A DNA stretch of 64,000 bases, taken from Escherichia coli. GTDB lineage: Bacteria > Pseudomonadota > Gammaproteobacteria > Enterobacterales > Enterobacteriaceae. The stretch lies in assembly GCF_009931435.1 (NCBI RefSeq), contig NZ_CP043414.1. One strand, written 5' to 3'. A model generated the notes under the pieces. The model saw only the letters and a list, made by a program, of their open reading frames with translations, did no database searches and had not been told where the DNA came from. Positions within the stretch are counted from its first letter, which is position 1; each line of letters opens with the position of its first letter. Positions 12,419-19,345 of the stretch are shown one piece after another. Made by a program: the position numbers and the translations under genes.

Positions 12419-15400
12419 ATGGCTTCGACAAATGCGCAGCAAATAAAAAATAATGATCAAAACTCTTTATGCGGTCTGGGTGACAAAATACGCCGCCTGG
12501 CCGCCGGAGTTTGTTTATTCACACAAATTTTTTTCCCCGTCATGGTGACGGCACAAAATGTGGTACACGCTAAACCCCAGATGACAGTTTCATCTCCTCC
12601 CCCTCTTACAGAAAATAAAACCGTACCTTACACGCTTGGCGCGCTGGAATCAGCGCAAAGTGTTGCTGACCGGTTTGGTATTTCACTGGAAGAGCTTCGT
12701 CGTCTTAATCAGTTTCGTACTTTTGCCCGCGGCTTTGATAACGTGCGTCAGGGTGAAGAACTGGATGTTCCGGCAACAACCTCGCAGAGAAGTCATGAGC
12801 TACAAAATGCCGTATCACCGGCGAATGCCGAAAACACTCTGGAGAATCAAATAGCCAGTACTTCACAGCGAGTTGGCACTCTGCTTTCACAAGATATGAA
12901 TAGTGAGCAGGCGAGCAGCATGGCGCGTGGTTGGGCGTCTTCAGAAGCCTCTGGCACGATGACTGATTGGTTAAATGACTTTGGCACCGCGAAAATCTCT
13001 CTGGGCGTGGATGAAGATTTTAGCCTGAAAAATTCGGAATTCGACTTCCTGCATCCATGGTATGACACACCCGATTATCTGCTCTTCAGCCAGCATACTC
13101 TTCACCGAACGGACGATCGCACCCAGATCAACACCGGTTTAGGCTGGCGTTACTTCACCCCCAGTTGGATGTCAGGCATCAACCTGTTTTTTGATCACGA
13201 CCTGAGCCGCTATCACTCCCGCGCGGGACTTGGCGCAGAATACTGGCGTGACTATCTGAAGTTGAGCAGCAATGCTTATATCGGCCTGACCGGCTGGCGT
13301 AGCGCACCAGAATTGGATAATGACTACGAAGCCCGCCCGGCTAACGGCTGGGATTTACGCGCAGAAGGCTGGTTACCTGCCTGGCCGCATCTGGGTGGAA
13401 AACTGGTCTATGAACAATACTATGGCGATGAAGTGGCGCTGTTTGACAAGAATGATCGTCAAAGTAATCCCCATGCTATTACCGCAGGCCTCAACTATAC
13501 CCCCTTCCCGCTTCTGACTCTCAGTGCAGAACAGCGTCAGGGGAAACAAGGTGAAAATGACTCACGGTTTGCCGTTGATCTGACCTGGCAACCCAGCAGC
13601 TCAATGCAGAAACAGCTTAACCCGGACGAAGTGGCCGGACGGCGCAGTCTGGCCGGTAGTCGTTATGACCTGATTGATCGCAACAACAACATCGTTCTGG
13701 AATACCGCAAGAAAGAGCTTATCCGCCTGAGTCTGCTGGACCCAGTGAAAGGGAAATCGGGAGAAATAAAACCGCTGGTTTCCTCGCTACAGACCAAATA
13801 TGCCCTGAAAGGCTATAAAATCGACGCTGCTGCGCTGGAATCTGCTGGAGGAAAAGTCAGCACTTCCGGAAAAGATATCACGGTCACGCTGCCTGGTTAC
13901 CGCTTCACTAACACCCCGGAAACCGATAATACGTGGCCGATAGACGTTACCGCTGAGGATGTAAAAGGTAATCTGTCACATCGTGAGCAAAGCATGGTCG
14001 TCATCCAGGCTCCGGCATTAAGCCAGAAAGATTCTCTGTTATCCGTTAATCCGCTAACCCTGGCAGCAGATAAAAAATCGACTACCACATTGACTGTGAC
14101 TGCGCACGATTCCGACGGTACCCCGGTTCCGGGGCTGGCACTGCAAACCCGCAGTGAAGGTGTTCAGGATATCACTCTGTCTGACTGGACAGATAACGGG
14201 GATGGTAGCTACACACAGATGCTGACTGCAGGAACGACTTCAGGTTCAGTAACACTGACACCGCAACTTAACGGTGAGAGTGCGGTAAAAGAATCCATCG
14301 TCGTTAATATCGTCCCTGTTGTCTCATCCCGCGACCATTCTTCAATATCCATAGATAACATATTGTATTATGCCGGAGACGACATCAAAGTCAGGGTAGA
14401 ACTGAAAGACGACAAAAATAAACCGGTTGAATATCAAGAAGACGCGTTGGTAAAAGCCGTCACTGTCGAGAACAGCAAACCTGGCGCCACGGTTGTCTGG
14501 CACGAAGAGCATCCGGGCGTTTATGCAGCGAATTATCCGGCCCATAAGCAAGGAGCAGCCCTGAGGGCACAACTTAGCCTTCACAACTGGAATACTCCTC
14601 TGCAATCGCATATTTATAATATCGAAGCAAACCAGAATAAGGCTCACGTCGCCACATTATCCGCAACGAATAATGACGTTTACGCCGATAAAAAGACGTT
14701 TAATACCATCACTATTAACGTCACTGATGAGAGTGATAATCCCCTGAGAAATCATCAGGTCACCTTTAAGAATGAGAAAGGAAGCGCGGAATTTGTAGAA
14801 CCGACGCAGCAAAATACTGATGCACATGGTGTTGCCACAATCAACATGATAAGTCAGGTTGCGGAAGAAAATACGATTAGCGCTACGCTGCCAAATGGTT
14901 CTACTCAACGGGTAACTGCGAAATTTGTTAGCGATTCGAATACGCCAAAACTCAAACAACTGGTTGCCGCGCCAGATACCATTAGTGCTGGTAATAGCCA
15001 GGGTAGTACCCTGACCGCCACCGTCACAGACTTTCATAACAACCCGTTAAAAGATATGAAAGTGAATTTTGTGGCACCAACTGACTCGCAACTGGACAAC
15101 ACGACCGCCACAACTGACCAGTCCGGGATTGCGCGGGTGCACCTGACCAGTTCAAAAGCAGGTAACTATACCGTCGATGCCTCGCTTGAGGCGGATAAAA
15201 ATATTCACCAGTCGGTTACGGTTACCGTGGTCCCAAACAGGGAACAATCGGTAATTATTTTGAATGCCGGATCGGGCAGTACGATTGCTAACAATACAGA
15301 TACCGTTACCCTGACTGCCAGTGTGAAAGATGTTTATGGACACTCACTACCGGATGAGGATGTGAAATTTACCTTGCCAGCATCTATGACAGGGAACTTC

Positions 15401-17659
15401 ACGCTAAGTAGTGACACCGCTCGCACCGATTCAAACGGCAATGCCGTGGTCACATTGCGAGGCACAAAAGCGGGTGAGTTTACAGTGACGGCGACACTGA
15501 GCAGAAATAATACCAGTGCTAATCAGCTAGTCTATTTTATTGGGGATACAAGCAGCGCGCAGCTCCAGCCGCTGACTGCCTCATTATATACCATAGTTGC
15601 TGGCAACAGTACGGGGAGTACCCTGACAGCAACGATCCTGGACGCTTACCAAAATCCGCTTAAAGACCAACAGGTCACTTTCCAGAGTAACGATGTCACA
15701 CTAAGCGGAACAGAAGTCACCACCAATACGCAGGGTCAAGCGACGGTAATAATGACCAGCAATATTGCCGGACAACATAACGTAGTGGTGAGCCGGAAAG
15801 CGCAATCATCCGATAATAAAACGTTTAGTTTATCAGTGCTCCCGGATGAAAGTTCGGCGAAGATAATAAGTATAACCGGAGCCGAAAAAACGATAATGGT
15901 TGGCGAAAACATCACGCTACGAATACACGTACAGGATGCGTTTAATAACGTCATAGCCGGTCAACGCGTCAGATTAAGTGCGCTGCCAACCGCTAACATT
16001 ACGATAGACGATACGGCTTACACCGATAATAACGGCTATGCGTACGTTAACCTTATCAGCACCCAGCCTGGGGTCTATCAGGTGACAGCATCGCTGGACA
16101 ATAACAGTAGTCGTAAAGTTGACGTGAGTGTGGCAAAGGGCAAACTCGAGTTAACATCATCGAAGCCAGAAACCACGGTCCATAACAGTGAAGGTATTAC
16201 ACTGACCGCAACGGCAAGAAATATTCAGGGTGAATTGATGCCGGGGCAAATTATCACCTTTAGCGTAACACCTGATGGTGCAACGCTAAGCAATACAGGG
16301 GAAATCCTGACTGATCAGTCAGGTCAGGCCAAAGTGACGCTGACCAGTGACAAAGTCAATGTATATACCGTTACGGCCACAATGGGCAAAGACGTTCCCG
16401 TTCAGAGCCAGGTGACGGTTGCGGTTAAGGCTGATGCTACAACGGCACATGTTGTGAGTGTAGTGGCTTCTCCTGACACCATAATCGCCGACGGGGTTGA
16501 TAGCAGCACCATCACTTCACGAGTAGAAGATGATTATGGATTCCCGGTTGAAGGTGTCGACGTTAGTTACAGCTTAGACACCAAAGGCAGCCCGGTGATT
16601 AATAATCCAACTACGCGTACCGATCAGTCCGGGCAAGTCACGGCGACAATAACAGGTACATTGGCAGAAGCTCTAATTGTCAATGTTCAGGTCCCTGGCA
16701 CAGTCCACAAATCCGCAGCCATTACATTGATTCCTGGTACGGCAGATGAAAGTAAATCAACATTGAAATCTAGCGTTAGCTCTTTTATGGCTGACTTCCA
16801 GGAGAGCGCGACACTTACGTTAATATTGCAAGACAAGTACGGTAACCCGATAGTGACGTCTGATCATCTGGAATTTGTCCAGTCAGGTGCCTACGTGAAC
16901 CTCCTGAAGTTGAGCAATATTGATTACAGCCAAAGAAATTATGGCGAGTACACCGTCACTGTCACTGGCGGCGTAGAGGGCAGAGCGACTCTCATTCCTA
17001 TGCTGAACGGTGTTCATCAAGCAAACTTAAGCATATCACTGGATCTTGTCCGCTCAATAAAAGACATGCACGGTCATGTAACAGTCAACAACCATACCTT
17101 CACAACGGCTACATTCCCCAGTGAAGGTTTTATAGGGGCGTACTACACACTTAATGATGACAACTTTGAAGCGGGTAAAACCGTTAGTGATTATATGTTC
17201 ACAAGTTCACAGAGTTGGGTGTCTGTCGATGCTTCAGGTAAAGTTTCTTTCACAAATACCGGCGACCAAACTTCAGTCGTAATAAGCGCTGTTCCCAGAC
17301 AAGGAGGTACAACCTACCAGACATTAATTAAGCTGAAAGGCTGGTGGGTGAATCATGGGAATCAAACCAATATCTGGCTAACTGCCAATGCGTTCTGCAA
17401 CGCGAAAAGTGATGGATATAATCTTCCTGGCGTCGCACATTTAACGTCTGGCGAAAACAAACGCACGTTGGGATCGCTATATGGTGAGTGGGGGAACGTT
17501 GGGGAGTTTTCCAGTGATTCGCAATTTACCGCGGGTGCTTACTGGACCAATCAACAGGATGATTACAATAGACACGTCTATGTGCAGATGCTGACGGGCA
17601 GGATTGGAAGCGACGCAGATTCCAGCGCTCAACTAACTGCCTGCCGTAAATCACTTTAA
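12419..17659 (+). CDS. inverse autotransporter adhesin (intimin/invasin family): LysM, beta-barrel, many Big domains, C-terminal lectin-like domain (1746 aa)
   Basis: N-terminal LysM-like segment (YTLGALESAQSVADRFGISLEELRRLNQF), repeated Ig-like modules (TISAGNSQGSTLTATVTD / TIVAGNSTGSTLTATILD), Cys-containing C-terminal domain. Confidence 0.8.
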   Translation: MASTNAQQIKNNDQNSLCGLGDKIRRLAAGVCLFTQIFFPVMVTAQNVVHAKPQMTVSSPPPLTENKTVPYTLGALESAQSVADRFGISLEELRRLNQFRTFARGFDNVRQGEELDVPATTSQRSHELQNAVSPANAENTLENQIASTSQRVGTLLSQDMNSEQASSMARGWASSEASGTMTDWLNDFGTAKISLGVDEDFSLKNSEFDFLHPWYDTPDYLLFSQHTLHRTDDRTQINTGLGWRYFTPSWMSGINLFFDHDLSRYHSRAGLGAEYWRDYLKLSSNAYIGLTGWRSAPELDNDYEARPANGWDLRAEGWLPAWPHLGGKLVYEQYYGDEVALFDKNDRQSNPHAITAGLNYTPFPLLTLSAEQRQGKQGENDSRFAVDLTWQPSSSMQKQLNPDEVAGRRSLAGSRYDLIDRNNNIVLEYRKKELIRLSLLDPVKGKSGEIKPLVSSLQTKYALKGYKIDAAALESAGGKVSTSGKDITVTLPGYRFTNTPETDNTWPIDVTAEDVKGNLSHREQSMVVIQAPALSQKDSLLSVNPLTLAADKKSTTTLTVTAHDSDGTPVPGLALQTRSEGVQDITLSDWTDNGDGSYTQMLTAGTTSGSVTLTPQLNGESAVKESIVVNIVPVVSSRDHSSISIDNILYYAGDDIKVRVELKDDKNKPVEYQEDALVKAVTVENSKPGATVVWHEEHPGVYAANYPAHKQGAALRAQLSLHNWNTPLQSHIYNIEANQNKAHVATLSATNNDVYADKKTFNTITINVTDESDNPLRNHQVTFKNEKGSAEFVEPTQQNTDAHGVATINMISQVAEENTISATLPNGSTQRVTAKFVSDSNTPKLKQLVAAPDTISAGNSQGSTLTATVTDFHNNPLKDMKVNFVAPTDSQLDNTTATTDQSGIARVHLTSSKAGNYTVDASLEADKNIHQSVTVTVVPNREQSVIILNAGSGSTIANNTDTVTLTASVKDVYGHSLPDEDVKFTLPASMTGNFTLSSDTARTDSNGNAVVTLRGTKAGEFTVTATLSRNNTSANQLVYFIGDTSSAQLQPLTASLYTIVAGNSTGSTLTATILDAYQNPLKDQQVTFQSNDVTLSGTEVTTNTQGQATVIMTSNIAGQHNVVVSRKAQSSDNKTFSLSVLPDESSAKIISITGAEKTIMVGENITLRIHVQDAFNNVIAGQRVRLSALPTANITIDDTAYTDNNGYAYVNLISTQPGVYQVTASLDNNSSRKVDVSVAKGKLELTSSKPETTVHNSEGITLTATARNIQGELMPGQIITFSVTPDGATLSNTGEILTDQSGQAKVTLTSDKVNVYTVTATMGKDVPVQSQVTVAVKADATTAHVVSVVASPDTIIADGVDSSTITSRVEDDYGFPVEGVDVSYSLDTKGSPVINNPTTRTDQSGQVTATITGTLAEALIVNVQVPGTVHKSAAITLIPGTADESKSTLKSSVSSFMADFQESATLTLILQDKYGNPIVTSDHLEFVQSGAYVNLLKLSNIDYSQRNYGEYTVTVTGGVEGRATLIPMLNGVHQANLSISLDLVRSIKDMHGHVTVNNHTFTTATFPSEGFIGAYYTLNDDNFEAGKTVSDYMFTSSQSWVSVDASGKVSFTNTGDQTSVVISAVPRQGGTTYQTLIKLKGWWVNHGNQTNIWLTANAFCNAKSDGYNLPGVAHLTSGENKRTLGSLYGEWGNVGEFSSDSQFTAGAYWTNQQDDYNRHVYVQMLTGRIGSDADSSAQLTACRKSL

Positions 17660-17676
17660 TTTCTGAAGTAGTTATT

Positions 17677-17706
17677 AAAGGATACCCTTTTGCGAGGGTA
17701 TCCTTT
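17677..17706. terminator. putative bidirectional terminator hairpin between convergent adhesin gene and kptA
   Basis: Perfect 12-bp stem AAAGGATACCCT / AGGGTATCCTTT with 6-nt loop; weak U-tract on both strands. Confidence 0.45.
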
Positions 17707-17730
17707 CAGACTCATGACAAAAGCCAAATT

Positions 17731-17755
17731 GCCTGATGCGCTACGCTTATCAGGC
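17731..17755. repeat. REP-like palindromic element
   Basis: GCCTGATGCGCTACGCTTATCAGGC. Confidence 0.5.
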
Positions 17756-17839
17756 TTACACTATCTCTCTAATATATTGAATTTTTATGCTTTTGTAGGG
17801 AGCGCAAGGCGTTTATGCCGCATCTGGCACGAGCAAACA

Positions 17840-18412
17840 TTAATCAGCTCTTTTCTTCGGGCACTCAAGAAACTCAACAGCAACCGTTGATGTCAGCCAG
17901 ACCCCGTTTTCCGCTTGCCAGAAAGGGATGCCTCGTTTCGCCATTTCCTGTGCTTTGACGGTTAAAATAACCGGCAATCCGTGTCTTGCTCCCACTTTGC
18001 GTGCCGTTGCTTCATCAGCAGAGAGATGCACGTAATGACGCTCTCCTGGAATCAGCCCTTGTTTTTTTATCTCGTCAAGAAAGCGGCTTGCCGTACCGTG
18101 GTAGAGAAACTGTGGCGGTGTTTTTTCGGCAAAGGCAATGGCGACCTGCGAAGTCGAATGCCCCTGAACCGCGCGAATGCACCTACTATCACTGGAATAA
18201 CTAAAACGCTTTTTATCGCTGGTGGCGACAACGGTATCCAGTAATGCACGGGTTAACCGCTTACCTGCTTTTTGTGCACAAAGTATGAGCTTATCAATAT
18301 CCGCCCATCCTTCACGGTCAAGTACGATACCAATCGCCTCCGGTTTATGTCGGAGAACAAAACTTAAAAACTTGCTTGTATCCGCCAGCTCTTTTTCGTT
18401 GTACTTTACCAT
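17840..18412 (-). CDS. kptA: RNA 2'-phosphotransferase (Tpt1/KptA family)
   Basis: 190-aa ORF with Tpt1-like sequence ([24 protein letters not shown]). Confidence 0.85.
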
Positions 18413-18661
18413 CGCGTTTTCGTCCCTGGATTTTCCGTTTTTATTTACTCACGTCATTGTCACTGGATTTATGAATTTTCTGCAACGAAATCCTTCGCAG
18501 CATCTTGTTCAAACAGCGTAATTTTTCCGCTATGCAAAAAACGCATAGCCAGAAACATACTTGCATTTTCCCCATACCCACATGGCTGATAAGGTTTTTC
18601 AGCTCCAGGAATTTTCCTGGCTCAAGCAACACACAAACACAAAAAAACAATGGGGATTGTT

Positions 18662-19345
18662 ATGACACAACAAGGGGATGCTGTAGCCGGGGAGCTGGCG
18701 ACAGAAAAAGTGGGCATTAAAGGGTATCTGGCTTTTTTTCTTACCATAATCTTTTTTTCCGGTGTTTTTTCCGGGACAGACAGCTGGTGGCGCGTTTTTG
18801 ATTTTTCCGTTCTGAACGGATCGTTTGGGCAACTGCCTGGTGCGAACGGAGCCACCACCTCGTTTCGCGGAGCGGGTGGCGCGGGGGCTAAAGATGGCTT
18901 TCTCTTTGCGCTGGAGCTGGCACCATCAGTCATTCTCTCTCTGGGGATTATTTCAATTACCGATGGTCTTGGTGGATTACGCGCCGCGCAGCAGTTAATG
19001 ACACCTGTGCTAAAACCATTGTTGGGCATTCCAGGAATCTGCTCGCTGGCGCTGATCGCTAACCTACAAAACACCGATGCCGCCGCCGGTATGACCAAAG
19101 AGCTGGCGCAGGAAGGTGAAATTACCGAACGCGATAAAGTGATTTTCGCCGCATATCAAACCAGCGGTAGCGCCATCATCACCAACTACTTCTCTTCCGG
19201 CGTCGCGGTGTTTGCCTTTCTGGGCACGTCCGTAATCGTACCTTTAGCCGTCATCCTGGTGTTTAAATTTGTCGGAGCCAACATTTTGCGCGTCTGGCTT
19301 AACTTCGAAGAACGTCGCAACCCAACGCAAGGAGCGCAAGCATGA
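18662..19345 (+). CDS. yjiH: nucleoside-recognition-domain membrane protein YjiH
   Basis: Hydrophobic ORF; ATG 18662 preferred over ATG 18650; stop overlaps yjiG start. Confidence 0.8.
   Translation: MTQQGDAVAGELATEKVGIKGYLAFFLTIIFFSGVFSGTDSWWRVFDFSVLNGSFGQLPGANGATTSFRGAGGAGAKDGFLFALELAPSVILSLGIISITDGLGGLRAAQQLMTPVLKPLLGIPGICSLALIANLQNTDAAAGMTKELAQEGEITERDKVIFAAYQTSGSAIITNYFSSGVAVFAFLGTSVIVPLAVILVFKFVGANILRVWLNFEERRNPTQGAQA

Follow-up and report, generated by a model that had tools for sequence, protein, structure and literature searches.

A reading frame between yjiJ and kptA in Escherichia coli is very probably an intact minority allele of the inverse autotransporter gene iatD

The window analyzed here is a stretch of 64,000 nucleotides from the Escherichia coli chromosome, within which positions 12419 to 17659 of the plus strand form an open reading frame of 1,746 codons plus a stop, free of any interruption, as an original prediction made from the sequence alone had proposed. 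A Shine-Dalgarno-like GGAAGG (12408 to 12413, plus strand), read directly from the sequence, precedes the ATG by 5 nucleotides (nt). The frame lies between yjiJ and kptA, the chromosomal position of the IatD orthologous group, and its neighbors are an espX6-like gene, yjiK, yjiJ, kptA, and yjiH. Genes that are 99.6 to 99.8% identical to it are annotated as iatD in RefSeq, with equal boundaries and likewise between yjiJ and kptA; the exact 1,746-amino-acid (aa) protein is present in NCBI under the name IatD; and the identical protein occurs on 14 independent contigs. The product aligns without gaps to IatD of strain SMS-3-5 (EcSMS35_4876; 1,746 versus 1,746 aa), with which the window copy shares the yjiJ-iatD-kptA locus and the order of its domains. 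There is little doubt that the frame represents an undisrupted iatD allele. This chromosomal gene, which varies in occurrence among strains, encodes an E. coli inverse autotransporter adhesin that belongs to the type Ve secretion system. The NCBIfam hits of the product include no IatD model, the best being a subcutoff match to the N-terminal model of IatC, so the RefSeq name must have been assigned on other grounds. The original prediction of an accessory adhesin had the class right, along with the lack of the gene in K-12, but did not recognize it as iatD; that reading was correct but ordinary, given that the gene was named, and its SMS-3-5 product tested, in 2019 (Goh et al. 2019, PMC6714894).

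Residues 1 to 51 (12419 to 12571, plus strand) read in translation as a Sec signal peptide, with a long N-region, the motif KIRR, the hydrophobic stretch LAAGVCLFTQIFFPVMVTA, and a predicted cleavage site at VHA/K; the segment is conserved among N-terminal homologs. A periplasmic LysM domain occupies residues 68 to 118 (12620 to 12772, plus strand). The Pfam LysM model, searched against residues 1 to 150, gave a subthreshold E value of only 0.055, so this part of the original prediction was checked through a structure model and through identity to a paralog, both of which support it: the AF2 model has a beta-alpha-alpha-beta fold (pLDDT of 84 to 88), LysM-domain structures, with intimin 2MPW among them and probabilities as high as 1.0, account for almost all of the 50 best Foldseek matches, and 46 of the 51 residues (90%) are identical to those of the LysM domain of K-12 YeeJ. 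The predicted inverse autotransporter beta-barrel is backed by the domain search, in which residues 148 to 423 (12860 to 13687, plus strand) match Pfam PF11924 (IAT_beta) with an E value of 1.6e-107, and by matches to the solved barrels of invasin (4E1T, E = 2.6e-80) and intimin (4E1S, E = 2.4e-67). The barrel precedes all of the Ig modules, which constitutes the inverted topology, and together with the LysM domain, the Ig stalk, and the invasin-like tip, it supports the reading of the product as an inverse autotransporter adhesin.

The barrel is followed by an Ig-like stalk spanning residues 440 to 1534 (13736 to 17020, plus strand), delimited by Pfam and by sequence matches to PDB entries for FdeC, intimin D0-D1, InvD, and InvE. 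The passenger comprises about 12 Ig-like modules overall, bearing out the predicted long run of such modules. Nine of them, within residues 537 to 1534, have Pfam support as Big_1/Invasin_D3 (residues 537 to 631, 745 to 837, 848 to 938, 952 to 1040, 1053 to 1135, 1164 to 1237, 1244 to 1333, 1346 to 1437, and 1443 to 1534), and a D4-like module is additional to these; no Pfam match was obtained for the D00-like module (440 to 536) or for the module at residues 640 to 744. The modules had been described as near-identical repeats that may recombine, but their pairwise amino acid identity reaches a maximum of 45%, with a median of 25%. At the DNA level, blastn of iatD against itself yields no off-diagonal match at an E value of ≤1e-3, exact direct repeats reach 13 nt at most, Tandem Repeats Finder detects a 20-nt trace only, and a repeat search recovers just three short pairs that are 70 to 83% identical. 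The k-mer, tandem-repeat, and self-blastn searches thus gave nothing meaningful, and the idea of recombination among repeats was dropped. Because the modules are strongly diverged and Goh et al. found no variation in the repeat number of IatD (PMC6714894), repeat-mediated recombination is unsupported.

The C-terminal tip consists of an invasin D4-like Ig module (residues 1554 to 1624; 17078 to 17290, plus strand; Pfam Invasin_D4, E = 0.0011) and a C-type-lectin-like, invasin D5-like domain (residues 1625 to 1746; 17291 to 17656, plus strand) recognized by alignment to invasin 1CWV. The Pfam Intimin_C model reached an E value of only 0.22 on the tip, and the lectin-like assignment was therefore examined by searching solved structures with the sequence and with a profile. 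The tip matches the D4-D5 part of invasin 1CWV with an E value of 5.4e-8 by sequence alone, and a profile aligns to the D3-D5 part with an E value of 2e-55, reaching position 465 of the 492 in the chain. The best fold matches of the tip are invasin 1CWV and intimin 1F00; however, the AF2 model, built from a 9-sequence alignment, has a mean pLDDT of 67 and falls below 50 for residues 1666 to 1737, which make up most of the lectin-like domain, such that it is chiefly the Ig and D4 parts that carry the fold match. The homolog search returned mostly short or frameshifted fragments, which left the alignments shallow. Cys1660 and Cys1742, the sole cysteines outside the signal peptide, are both conserved in homologs and, by analogy with the family, presumably form a disulfide. 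The predicted cysteine-containing, lectin-like tip is thus upheld by homology to invasin D4-D5.

Stable hairpins flank iatD on both sides, as predicted, but their description as the gene's own terminators holds only in part. The upstream hairpin (12271 to 12292, plus strand; GC-rich 8-bp stem, −17.5 kcal/mol, z = −3.7) lies 63 nt past the yjiJ stop codon and is for this reason more naturally ascribed to yjiJ than to iatD; it is probably the yjiJ terminator and would isolate transcription of iatD from that of yjiJ. The downstream hairpin (17679 to 17704; 11-bp stem, −21 kcal/mol, z = −4.1) starts 20 nt past the iatD stop codon, between the convergent iatD and kptA, and has a short U-run on either strand, but it was not called by the terminator scan. 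A canonical U-tract is missing from both hairpins, and the region contains 5 terminator-like sites, versus 5.8 expected in shuffled sequence. A palindrome, GCCTGATGCGCTACGCTTATCAGGC, lies at 17731 to 17755 and recurs with one mismatch at 1117 to 1141, with no copies expected by chance; it resembles the REP consensus sequences of E. coli and is taken to be a REP-like element. Upstream of iatD, the promoter scan detected no convincing promoter, with promoter-like sites occurring at the level of chance, and a search of Rfam over positions 7000 to 19000 returned no match, leaving the surroundings of the gene without a known regulatory RNA.

The yjiJ-kptA interval is empty in K-12, as had been stated in the original prediction: in MG1655, only 12 bp separate the stop codons of the two genes. 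The predicted insertion of the adhesin gene between them is right as to position, but a simple insertion is rejected by the alignment to K-12, which shows divergence over the whole of 7408 to 17861. Outside these limits the window is ~96% identical to K-12, whereas identity is 81% across yjiK-yjiJ, and nothing aligns over the espX6-like gene or iatD. The block, of ~10.4 kb, contains in order the espX6-like pentapeptide-repeat gene (7771 to 9861), a divergent yjiK (10121 to 10963), a divergent yjiJ (10997 to 12208), and iatD. Records are nearly equal in number for iatD (640), the window-type yjiK-yjiJ (640), and the espX6-like gene (637). Because yjiK and yjiJ are only 81% identical to those of K-12 and because these counts are so close, the entire segment is, as read from these comparisons, an alternative haplotype carrying the espX6-like gene, yjiK, yjiJ, and iatD. 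The gene is carried by ~640 of 5,426 complete genomes and is missing from ~88% of complete E. coli genomes. Each iatD allele travels in a fixed block with the espX6-like gene, which is of the type III secretion system effector type, and with divergent yjiK and yjiJ.

Among iatD copies, that of the window belongs to a minority allele differing by ~10% from the version tested in SMS-3-5. The window-type allele (at least 99% identity) is represented by 14 records, versus 625 for the common, ~91%-identical type that includes SMS-3-5. The window and SMS-3-5 alleles are 90.4% identical in amino acids and 91.3% in nucleotides overall, with identities of 100% in the LysM domain, 97% in the barrel, 86% in the D4-like module, and 82% in the tip. 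IatD copies were reported to be >98% identical by amino acid (Goh et al. 2019, PMC6714894), a level that the window copy falls short of; the discrepancy reflects the small sample of 7 genes available in 2019. Between the two alleles, dN/dS is 0.185 (0.07 in the barrel) across a dS of 0.26, a sign that both have long been under purifying selection.

Copies of iatD are often lost, inactivated by insertion sequence (IS) elements or by frameshifts: IS2, IS3, or IS66 insertions interrupt the gene in 5 of the 13 records that carry the nearest allele, and the copy in O157:H7 strain F6667 has a +1 frameshift at nt 178. These inactivated copies, the rarity of the gene among complete genomes, and the chance-level promoter signals upstream of it would all accord with iatD being a silent or decaying relic that is intact in this strain yet unexpressed and without contribution to fitness. 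We consider this unlikely, in that the 1,746-codon frame is intact at its reference length and free of gaps, the same protein recurs unchanged on independent contigs, and the low dN/dS denotes selection sustained over a considerable divergence.

The proposed mechanism of IatD follows that of its family. Its long N-terminal signal peptide would direct Sec export, the LysM domain would remain in the periplasm and bind peptidoglycan, and the beta-barrel (residues ~148 to 430) would insert in the outer membrane. The C-terminal passenger would then thread out through the barrel to form a rod of the diverged Ig-like modules, ending in a disulfide-stabilized, lectin-like tip resembling invasin D4-D5 that may contact a putative ligand. 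When produced, IatD may promote surface colonization and biofilm formation. IatD of SMS-3-5, for which a LysM domain, a barrel, Big1 domains, and a C-type lectin domain were predicted, is surface exposed by immunofluorescence and confers biofilm formation on K-12 when overexpressed (PMC6714894). These experiments employed IPTG-induced overexpression only, under which IatD caused no autoaggregation and did not bind extracellular matrix proteins (PMC6714894). Surface display and biofilm formation by the window allele are expected by analogy with the SMS-3-5 allele under overexpression.

The tip raises the alternative that IatD is primarily an invasin-like adhesin binding a host receptor (e.g., integrin), with biofilm formation a side effect of overexpression. 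Besides the profile alignment to the integrin-binding D4-D5 superdomain of invasin, the top fold match to invasin 1CWV, and the conserved pair of cysteines, two independent alignments place Asp1665 opposite an invasin Asp four residues past the first cysteine. The aligned invasin residue is presumably Asp911, which is critical for integrin binding, and the corresponding position in YeeJ-like and Yersinia aldovae homologs is Asn or Gly. But sequence identity in the structural alignment with invasin is ~23%, the loop containing the aligned Asp has an indel, the AF2 model is of low confidence exactly around it, and the overexpressed SMS-3-5 protein bound no matrix proteins, making this a decidedly improbable account. 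It is similarly improbable that the two diverged alleles recognize different receptors, with the tip serving as an invasin-like host-receptor module rather than as a generic biofilm factor; were this true, the block would represent an ancient, horizontally exchanged colonization module.

The intended comparison with intimin, invasin, FdeC, YeeJ, and SinH identifies each of them as a relative of IatD. YeeJ (b1978 of K-12) is the closest paralog, likewise composed of a LysM domain, a barrel, a Big_1 stalk, and a lectin-like tip; the two proteins are 86% identical in the barrel but 45% in the tip and 49.8% overall, and YeeJ is longer (2,339 aa), contains more Ig modules, and is encoded at another locus (beside asnT and mtfA in K-12). 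The iatD and yeeJ genes are 77% identical over nt 199 to 1928. YeeJ promotes biofilm formation, and its LysM domain binds peptidoglycan (PMC5595812). IatC, FdeC, and SinH have a barrel and a Big_1 passenger in common with IatD but differ in locus and size, and against IatD all fall short of the cutoffs of their families; the N-terminal IatC model matches IatD residues 12 to 839 below its cutoff, and the FdeC structure 4E9L matches with an E value of 3.2e-28. NCBIfam scores against their cutoffs are 1135/2400 bits for IatC, 386.8/1400 for intimin, and 299/999 for SinH. Intimin of enteropathogenic and enterohemorrhagic E. coli (1F00, 4E1S, 2MPW) is built like IatD from a LysM domain, a barrel, Ig modules, and a lectin-like tip, but the IatD stalk is much longer, and iatD lacks the LEE context and has no Tir partner nearby; on this evidence and the intimin score, identity with intimin was rejected. 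Invasin of Yersinia pseudotuberculosis (1CWV, 4E1T) shares the barrel, the D3-D5 region, and the cysteine pair of the tip; integrin binding, a property of invasin, is for IatD a candidate function only. Invasin has only four Ig domains before its lectin-like domain and is not known to have a LysM domain. That the frame is a mislabeled copy or ortholog of YeeJ, IatC, or intimin, as the high identity of its LysM domain and barrel to those of YeeJ, the DNA similarity to yeeJ, and the leading IatC match could suggest, is refuted by the comparisons of locus, length, and identity. NCBIfam scores that all lie far under the curated cutoffs, the second matching place in some genomes that contain a full-length iatD match, and the co-occurrence of yeeJ, iatC, and iatD in SMS-3-5 (PMC6714894) also speak against it.

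The 2019 publication already covered iatD itself, the layout of its domains, its variable distribution among strains, and its biofilm phenotype, and what the window copy contributes is modest. The diversity of IatD exceeds the earlier figure, in that a minority allele exists that is ~10% different, with the greatest divergence at the presumed binding tip. As part of an alternative haplotype of ~10.4 kb, the gene is inherited along with divergent copies of yjiK and yjiJ and an espX6-like gene. Inactivation of iatD by IS elements or frameshifts is frequent.

An uninterrupted open reading frame of 1746 amino acids, iatD (window 12419..17659, + strand), was borne out by the ORF listing at the position originally predicted. 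It lies between yjiJ, a 403-aa MFS transporter ORF (10997..12208, +), and a 190-aa minus-strand ORF (17840..18412) that encodes the RNA 2'-phosphotransferase KptA (NCBIfam, 412 bits versus a cut-off of 233). GGAAGG stands 5 nt ahead of the start ATG, and the G+C content of the gene (45 to 52%) does not differ markedly from that of its flanks. Among 5,426 complete E. coli genomes, Megablast recovered the 6-kb iatD region at 99.2 to 99.6% identity in 13 records, in which RefSeq labels the gene "iatD: inverse autotransporter IatD" between yjiJ and kptA. Entries for the exact 1746-aa protein, named "inverse autotransporter IatD", already exist in NCBI, UniRef, and other sources (14 contigs).

Goh et al. 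(2019, mSphere; PMC6714894) gave IatD its name and tested it, with EcSMS35_4876 of strain SMS-3-5 (5,241 bp) as the type gene. The SMS-3-5 protein was predicted to contain a LysM domain, a beta-barrel, Big1 repeats, and a C-type lectin cap; it was surface localized by immunofluorescence, and its overexpression in K-12 led to strong biofilm, with neither autoaggregation nor binding to extracellular-matrix proteins seen (PMC6714894). A complete iatD occurred in 6% of 126 genomes in that study (PMC6714894), and a 2020 review places IatD among the type 5e biofilm factors. Because the gene was named and tested in 2019 and the exact protein is in databases, the feature is already known; the original prediction is right in substance, yet two of its components, near-identical internal repeats and simple insertion, are corrected here.

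Domain searches support the proposed architecture. The beta-barrel (residues 148 to 423) matches Pfam IAT_beta (PF11924, E = 1.6e-107) and the solved barrels of invasin (E = 2.6e-80) and intimin (E = 2.4e-67). The long run of Ig-like modules comprises nine Big_1/Invasin_D3 modules by Pfam (residues 537-631, 745-837, 848-938, 952-1040, 1053-1135, 1164-1237, 1244-1333, 1346-1437, and 1443-1534) and a weakly matching Invasin_D4 module (1554-1624). No Pfam match was obtained for segments 440-536 and 640-744, which are nevertheless of Ig-module size, and we infer that they are Ig-like. Pfam detects the LysM segment only at E = 0.055 (21 of 43 model positions) and phmmer matches to LysM structures are weak (4UZ2, E = 0.0016), but AF2, with a 16-sequence alignment, models residues 68-118 as beta-alpha-alpha-beta (pLDDT 84 to 88), and LysM-domain structures, including the periplasmic LysM of intimin (2MPW), account for nearly all of its 50 best Foldseek matches. 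Moreover, 46 of 51 residues are identical to the LysM of K-12 YeeJ, whose binding to peptidoglycan has been shown experimentally (PMC5595812).

For the predicted lectin-like tip, the last 246 residues match the D4-D5 part of invasin 1CWV (phmmer, E = 5.4e-8), and a nine-homologue profile of the tip matches 1CWV at E = 2e-55 (chain positions 137-465). An AF2 model of the tip, of low confidence at residues 1666-1737, has invasin 1CWV (E = 1.9e-12) and intimin 1F00 (E = 1.4e-9) as its best fold matches; Pfam Intimin_C reaches only E = 0.22. The only two cysteines of mature IatD, Cys1660 and Cys1742, lie in the tip and are conserved in homologues, and the pair matches a disulfide known in invasin and intimin.

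Comparison with known inverse autotransporters upheld family membership. The curated NCBIfam models for the IatC N-terminus, YrIlm, Ilp, intimin, SinH, Inv, and YchO all scored below cut-off against IatD. The closest paralogue, YeeJ, shares 49.8% identity across residues 20-1482 (tip, 45%); it comprises 2339 aa, as opposed to 1746, and is encoded at a different locus. [quoted passage not shown]

The internal repeats are not near-identical. Pairwise amino acid identity among Ig modules is at most 45% (median, 25%), sensitive self-blastn of iatD gave no off-diagonal matches, no exact direct repeat is longer than 13 nt, and Tandem Repeats Finder and a second repeat search returned trivial matches only. 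Given these diverged modules and the lack of DNA self-matches, the suggested recombination between repeats is unsupported, in agreement with Goh et al., who reported no evidence of varying repeat number (PMC6714894).

Hairpins do flank iatD, at 12271-12292 (-17.5 kcal/mol, z = -3.7) and 17679-17704 (-21 kcal/mol, z = -4.1). The first lies 63 nt past the yjiJ stop and more plausibly terminates yjiJ. The second, between the convergent iatD and kptA, is without a proper U-tract and was not called by a terminator scan, in which terminator-like sites overall were at chance level. It is followed in the spacer by a REP-like palindrome (GCCTGATGCGCTACGCTTATCAGGC, 17731-17755), a second copy of which lies at 1117-1141.

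The interval is indeed empty in K-12, with 12 bp between the yjiJ and kptA stops of MG1655, but iatD is not a clean insertion. Identity to K-12 is 95.6 to 96% left of window position 7407 and right of 17862 but only 81% over yjiK-yjiJ (10126-12163), and nothing aligns across 7408-10125 and 12164-17861. In the genome collection, iatD at at least 80% identity occurs in 640 records, the window type of yjiK-yjiJ at at least 90% in 640 (versus 4,706 with the ~81% K-12 type), and a pentapeptide-repeat gene (7771-9861, +) in 637, a set nearly equal in size to that of iatD. The alignment breaks and record counts therefore place iatD in an alternative haplotype of ~10.4 kb, present in about 12% of complete genomes. 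Its boundary (~17862) falls inside the 3' end of kptA, so the KptA C-terminus differs between haplotypes.

Several neighboring features were also observed. KptA has 190 aa in the window versus 184 aa in K-12 (555 bp), and kptA is annotated as frameshifted in O157:H7 strain F6667. The 696-aa pentapeptide-repeat protein, missing from K-12 and annotated espX6 in O157:H7 genomes, resembles type PipB/PipB2/SopA T3SS effectors; it contains an internal TSA/TSD and P-rich repeat, and its gene lies in a stretch of low G+C (33 to 39%). For the housekeeping-looking yjiK (SdiA-regulated domain protein) and yjiJ (10121-12208, +; 81% DNA identity to K-12), two deeply diverged haplotypes coexist in E. coli. 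Over 42600-64000, the window departs from its closest iatD-region relative, strain RMDEC465, after about 42673. The cluster that follows probably represents a defence island; it encodes DEAD/DEAH helicases of very large size, a UvrD-like helicase, and a class I SAM-dependent DNA methyltransferase. A similar gene set in SMS-3-5 is annotated beside Zorya and Wadjet defence genes, and the corresponding variable region in RMDEC465 adjoins tRNA-Leu.

IatD has the architecture of a type Ve autotransporter. Going by what is established for intimin, invasin, and YeeJ, it would be exported by Sec, with its periplasmic LysM bound to peptidoglycan, its barrel in the outer membrane, and its C-terminal passenger threaded outward. 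Asp1665 aligns with the invasin Asp four residues past the first Cys, which we take to be Asp911, critical for integrin binding; the loop contains an indel and is poorly modeled, and Asp1665 as an invasin-like integrin-binding residue is a lead only. Surface display and biofilm promotion have been shown for the SMS-3-5 allele (PMC6714894).

The window and SMS-3-5 proteins align without gaps at 90.4% amino acid (91.3% nucleotide) identity, which is 100% in LysM, 97% in the barrel, 90% in the stalk, 86% in the D4-like module, and 82% in the tip. The window allele occurs at at least 99% identity in only 14 records, versus 625 for the common type (~91% identical), to which SMS-3-5 belongs. Between the two alleles, dN is 0.048, dS 0.26, and dN/dS 0.185 (Nei-Gojobori; barrel, 0.07; tip, 0.25), and this low ratio over such divergence indicates that both have long been under purifying selection. 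Disrupted copies of iatD are also common: among the 13 closest records, 5 have IS2, IS3, or IS66 within the gene, and an additional G at nt 178 causes a +1 frameshift in O157:H7 strain F6667, suggesting recurrent inactivation. The IatD copies reported in 2019 were >98% identical (PMC6714894), and these two alleles are more divergent than that.
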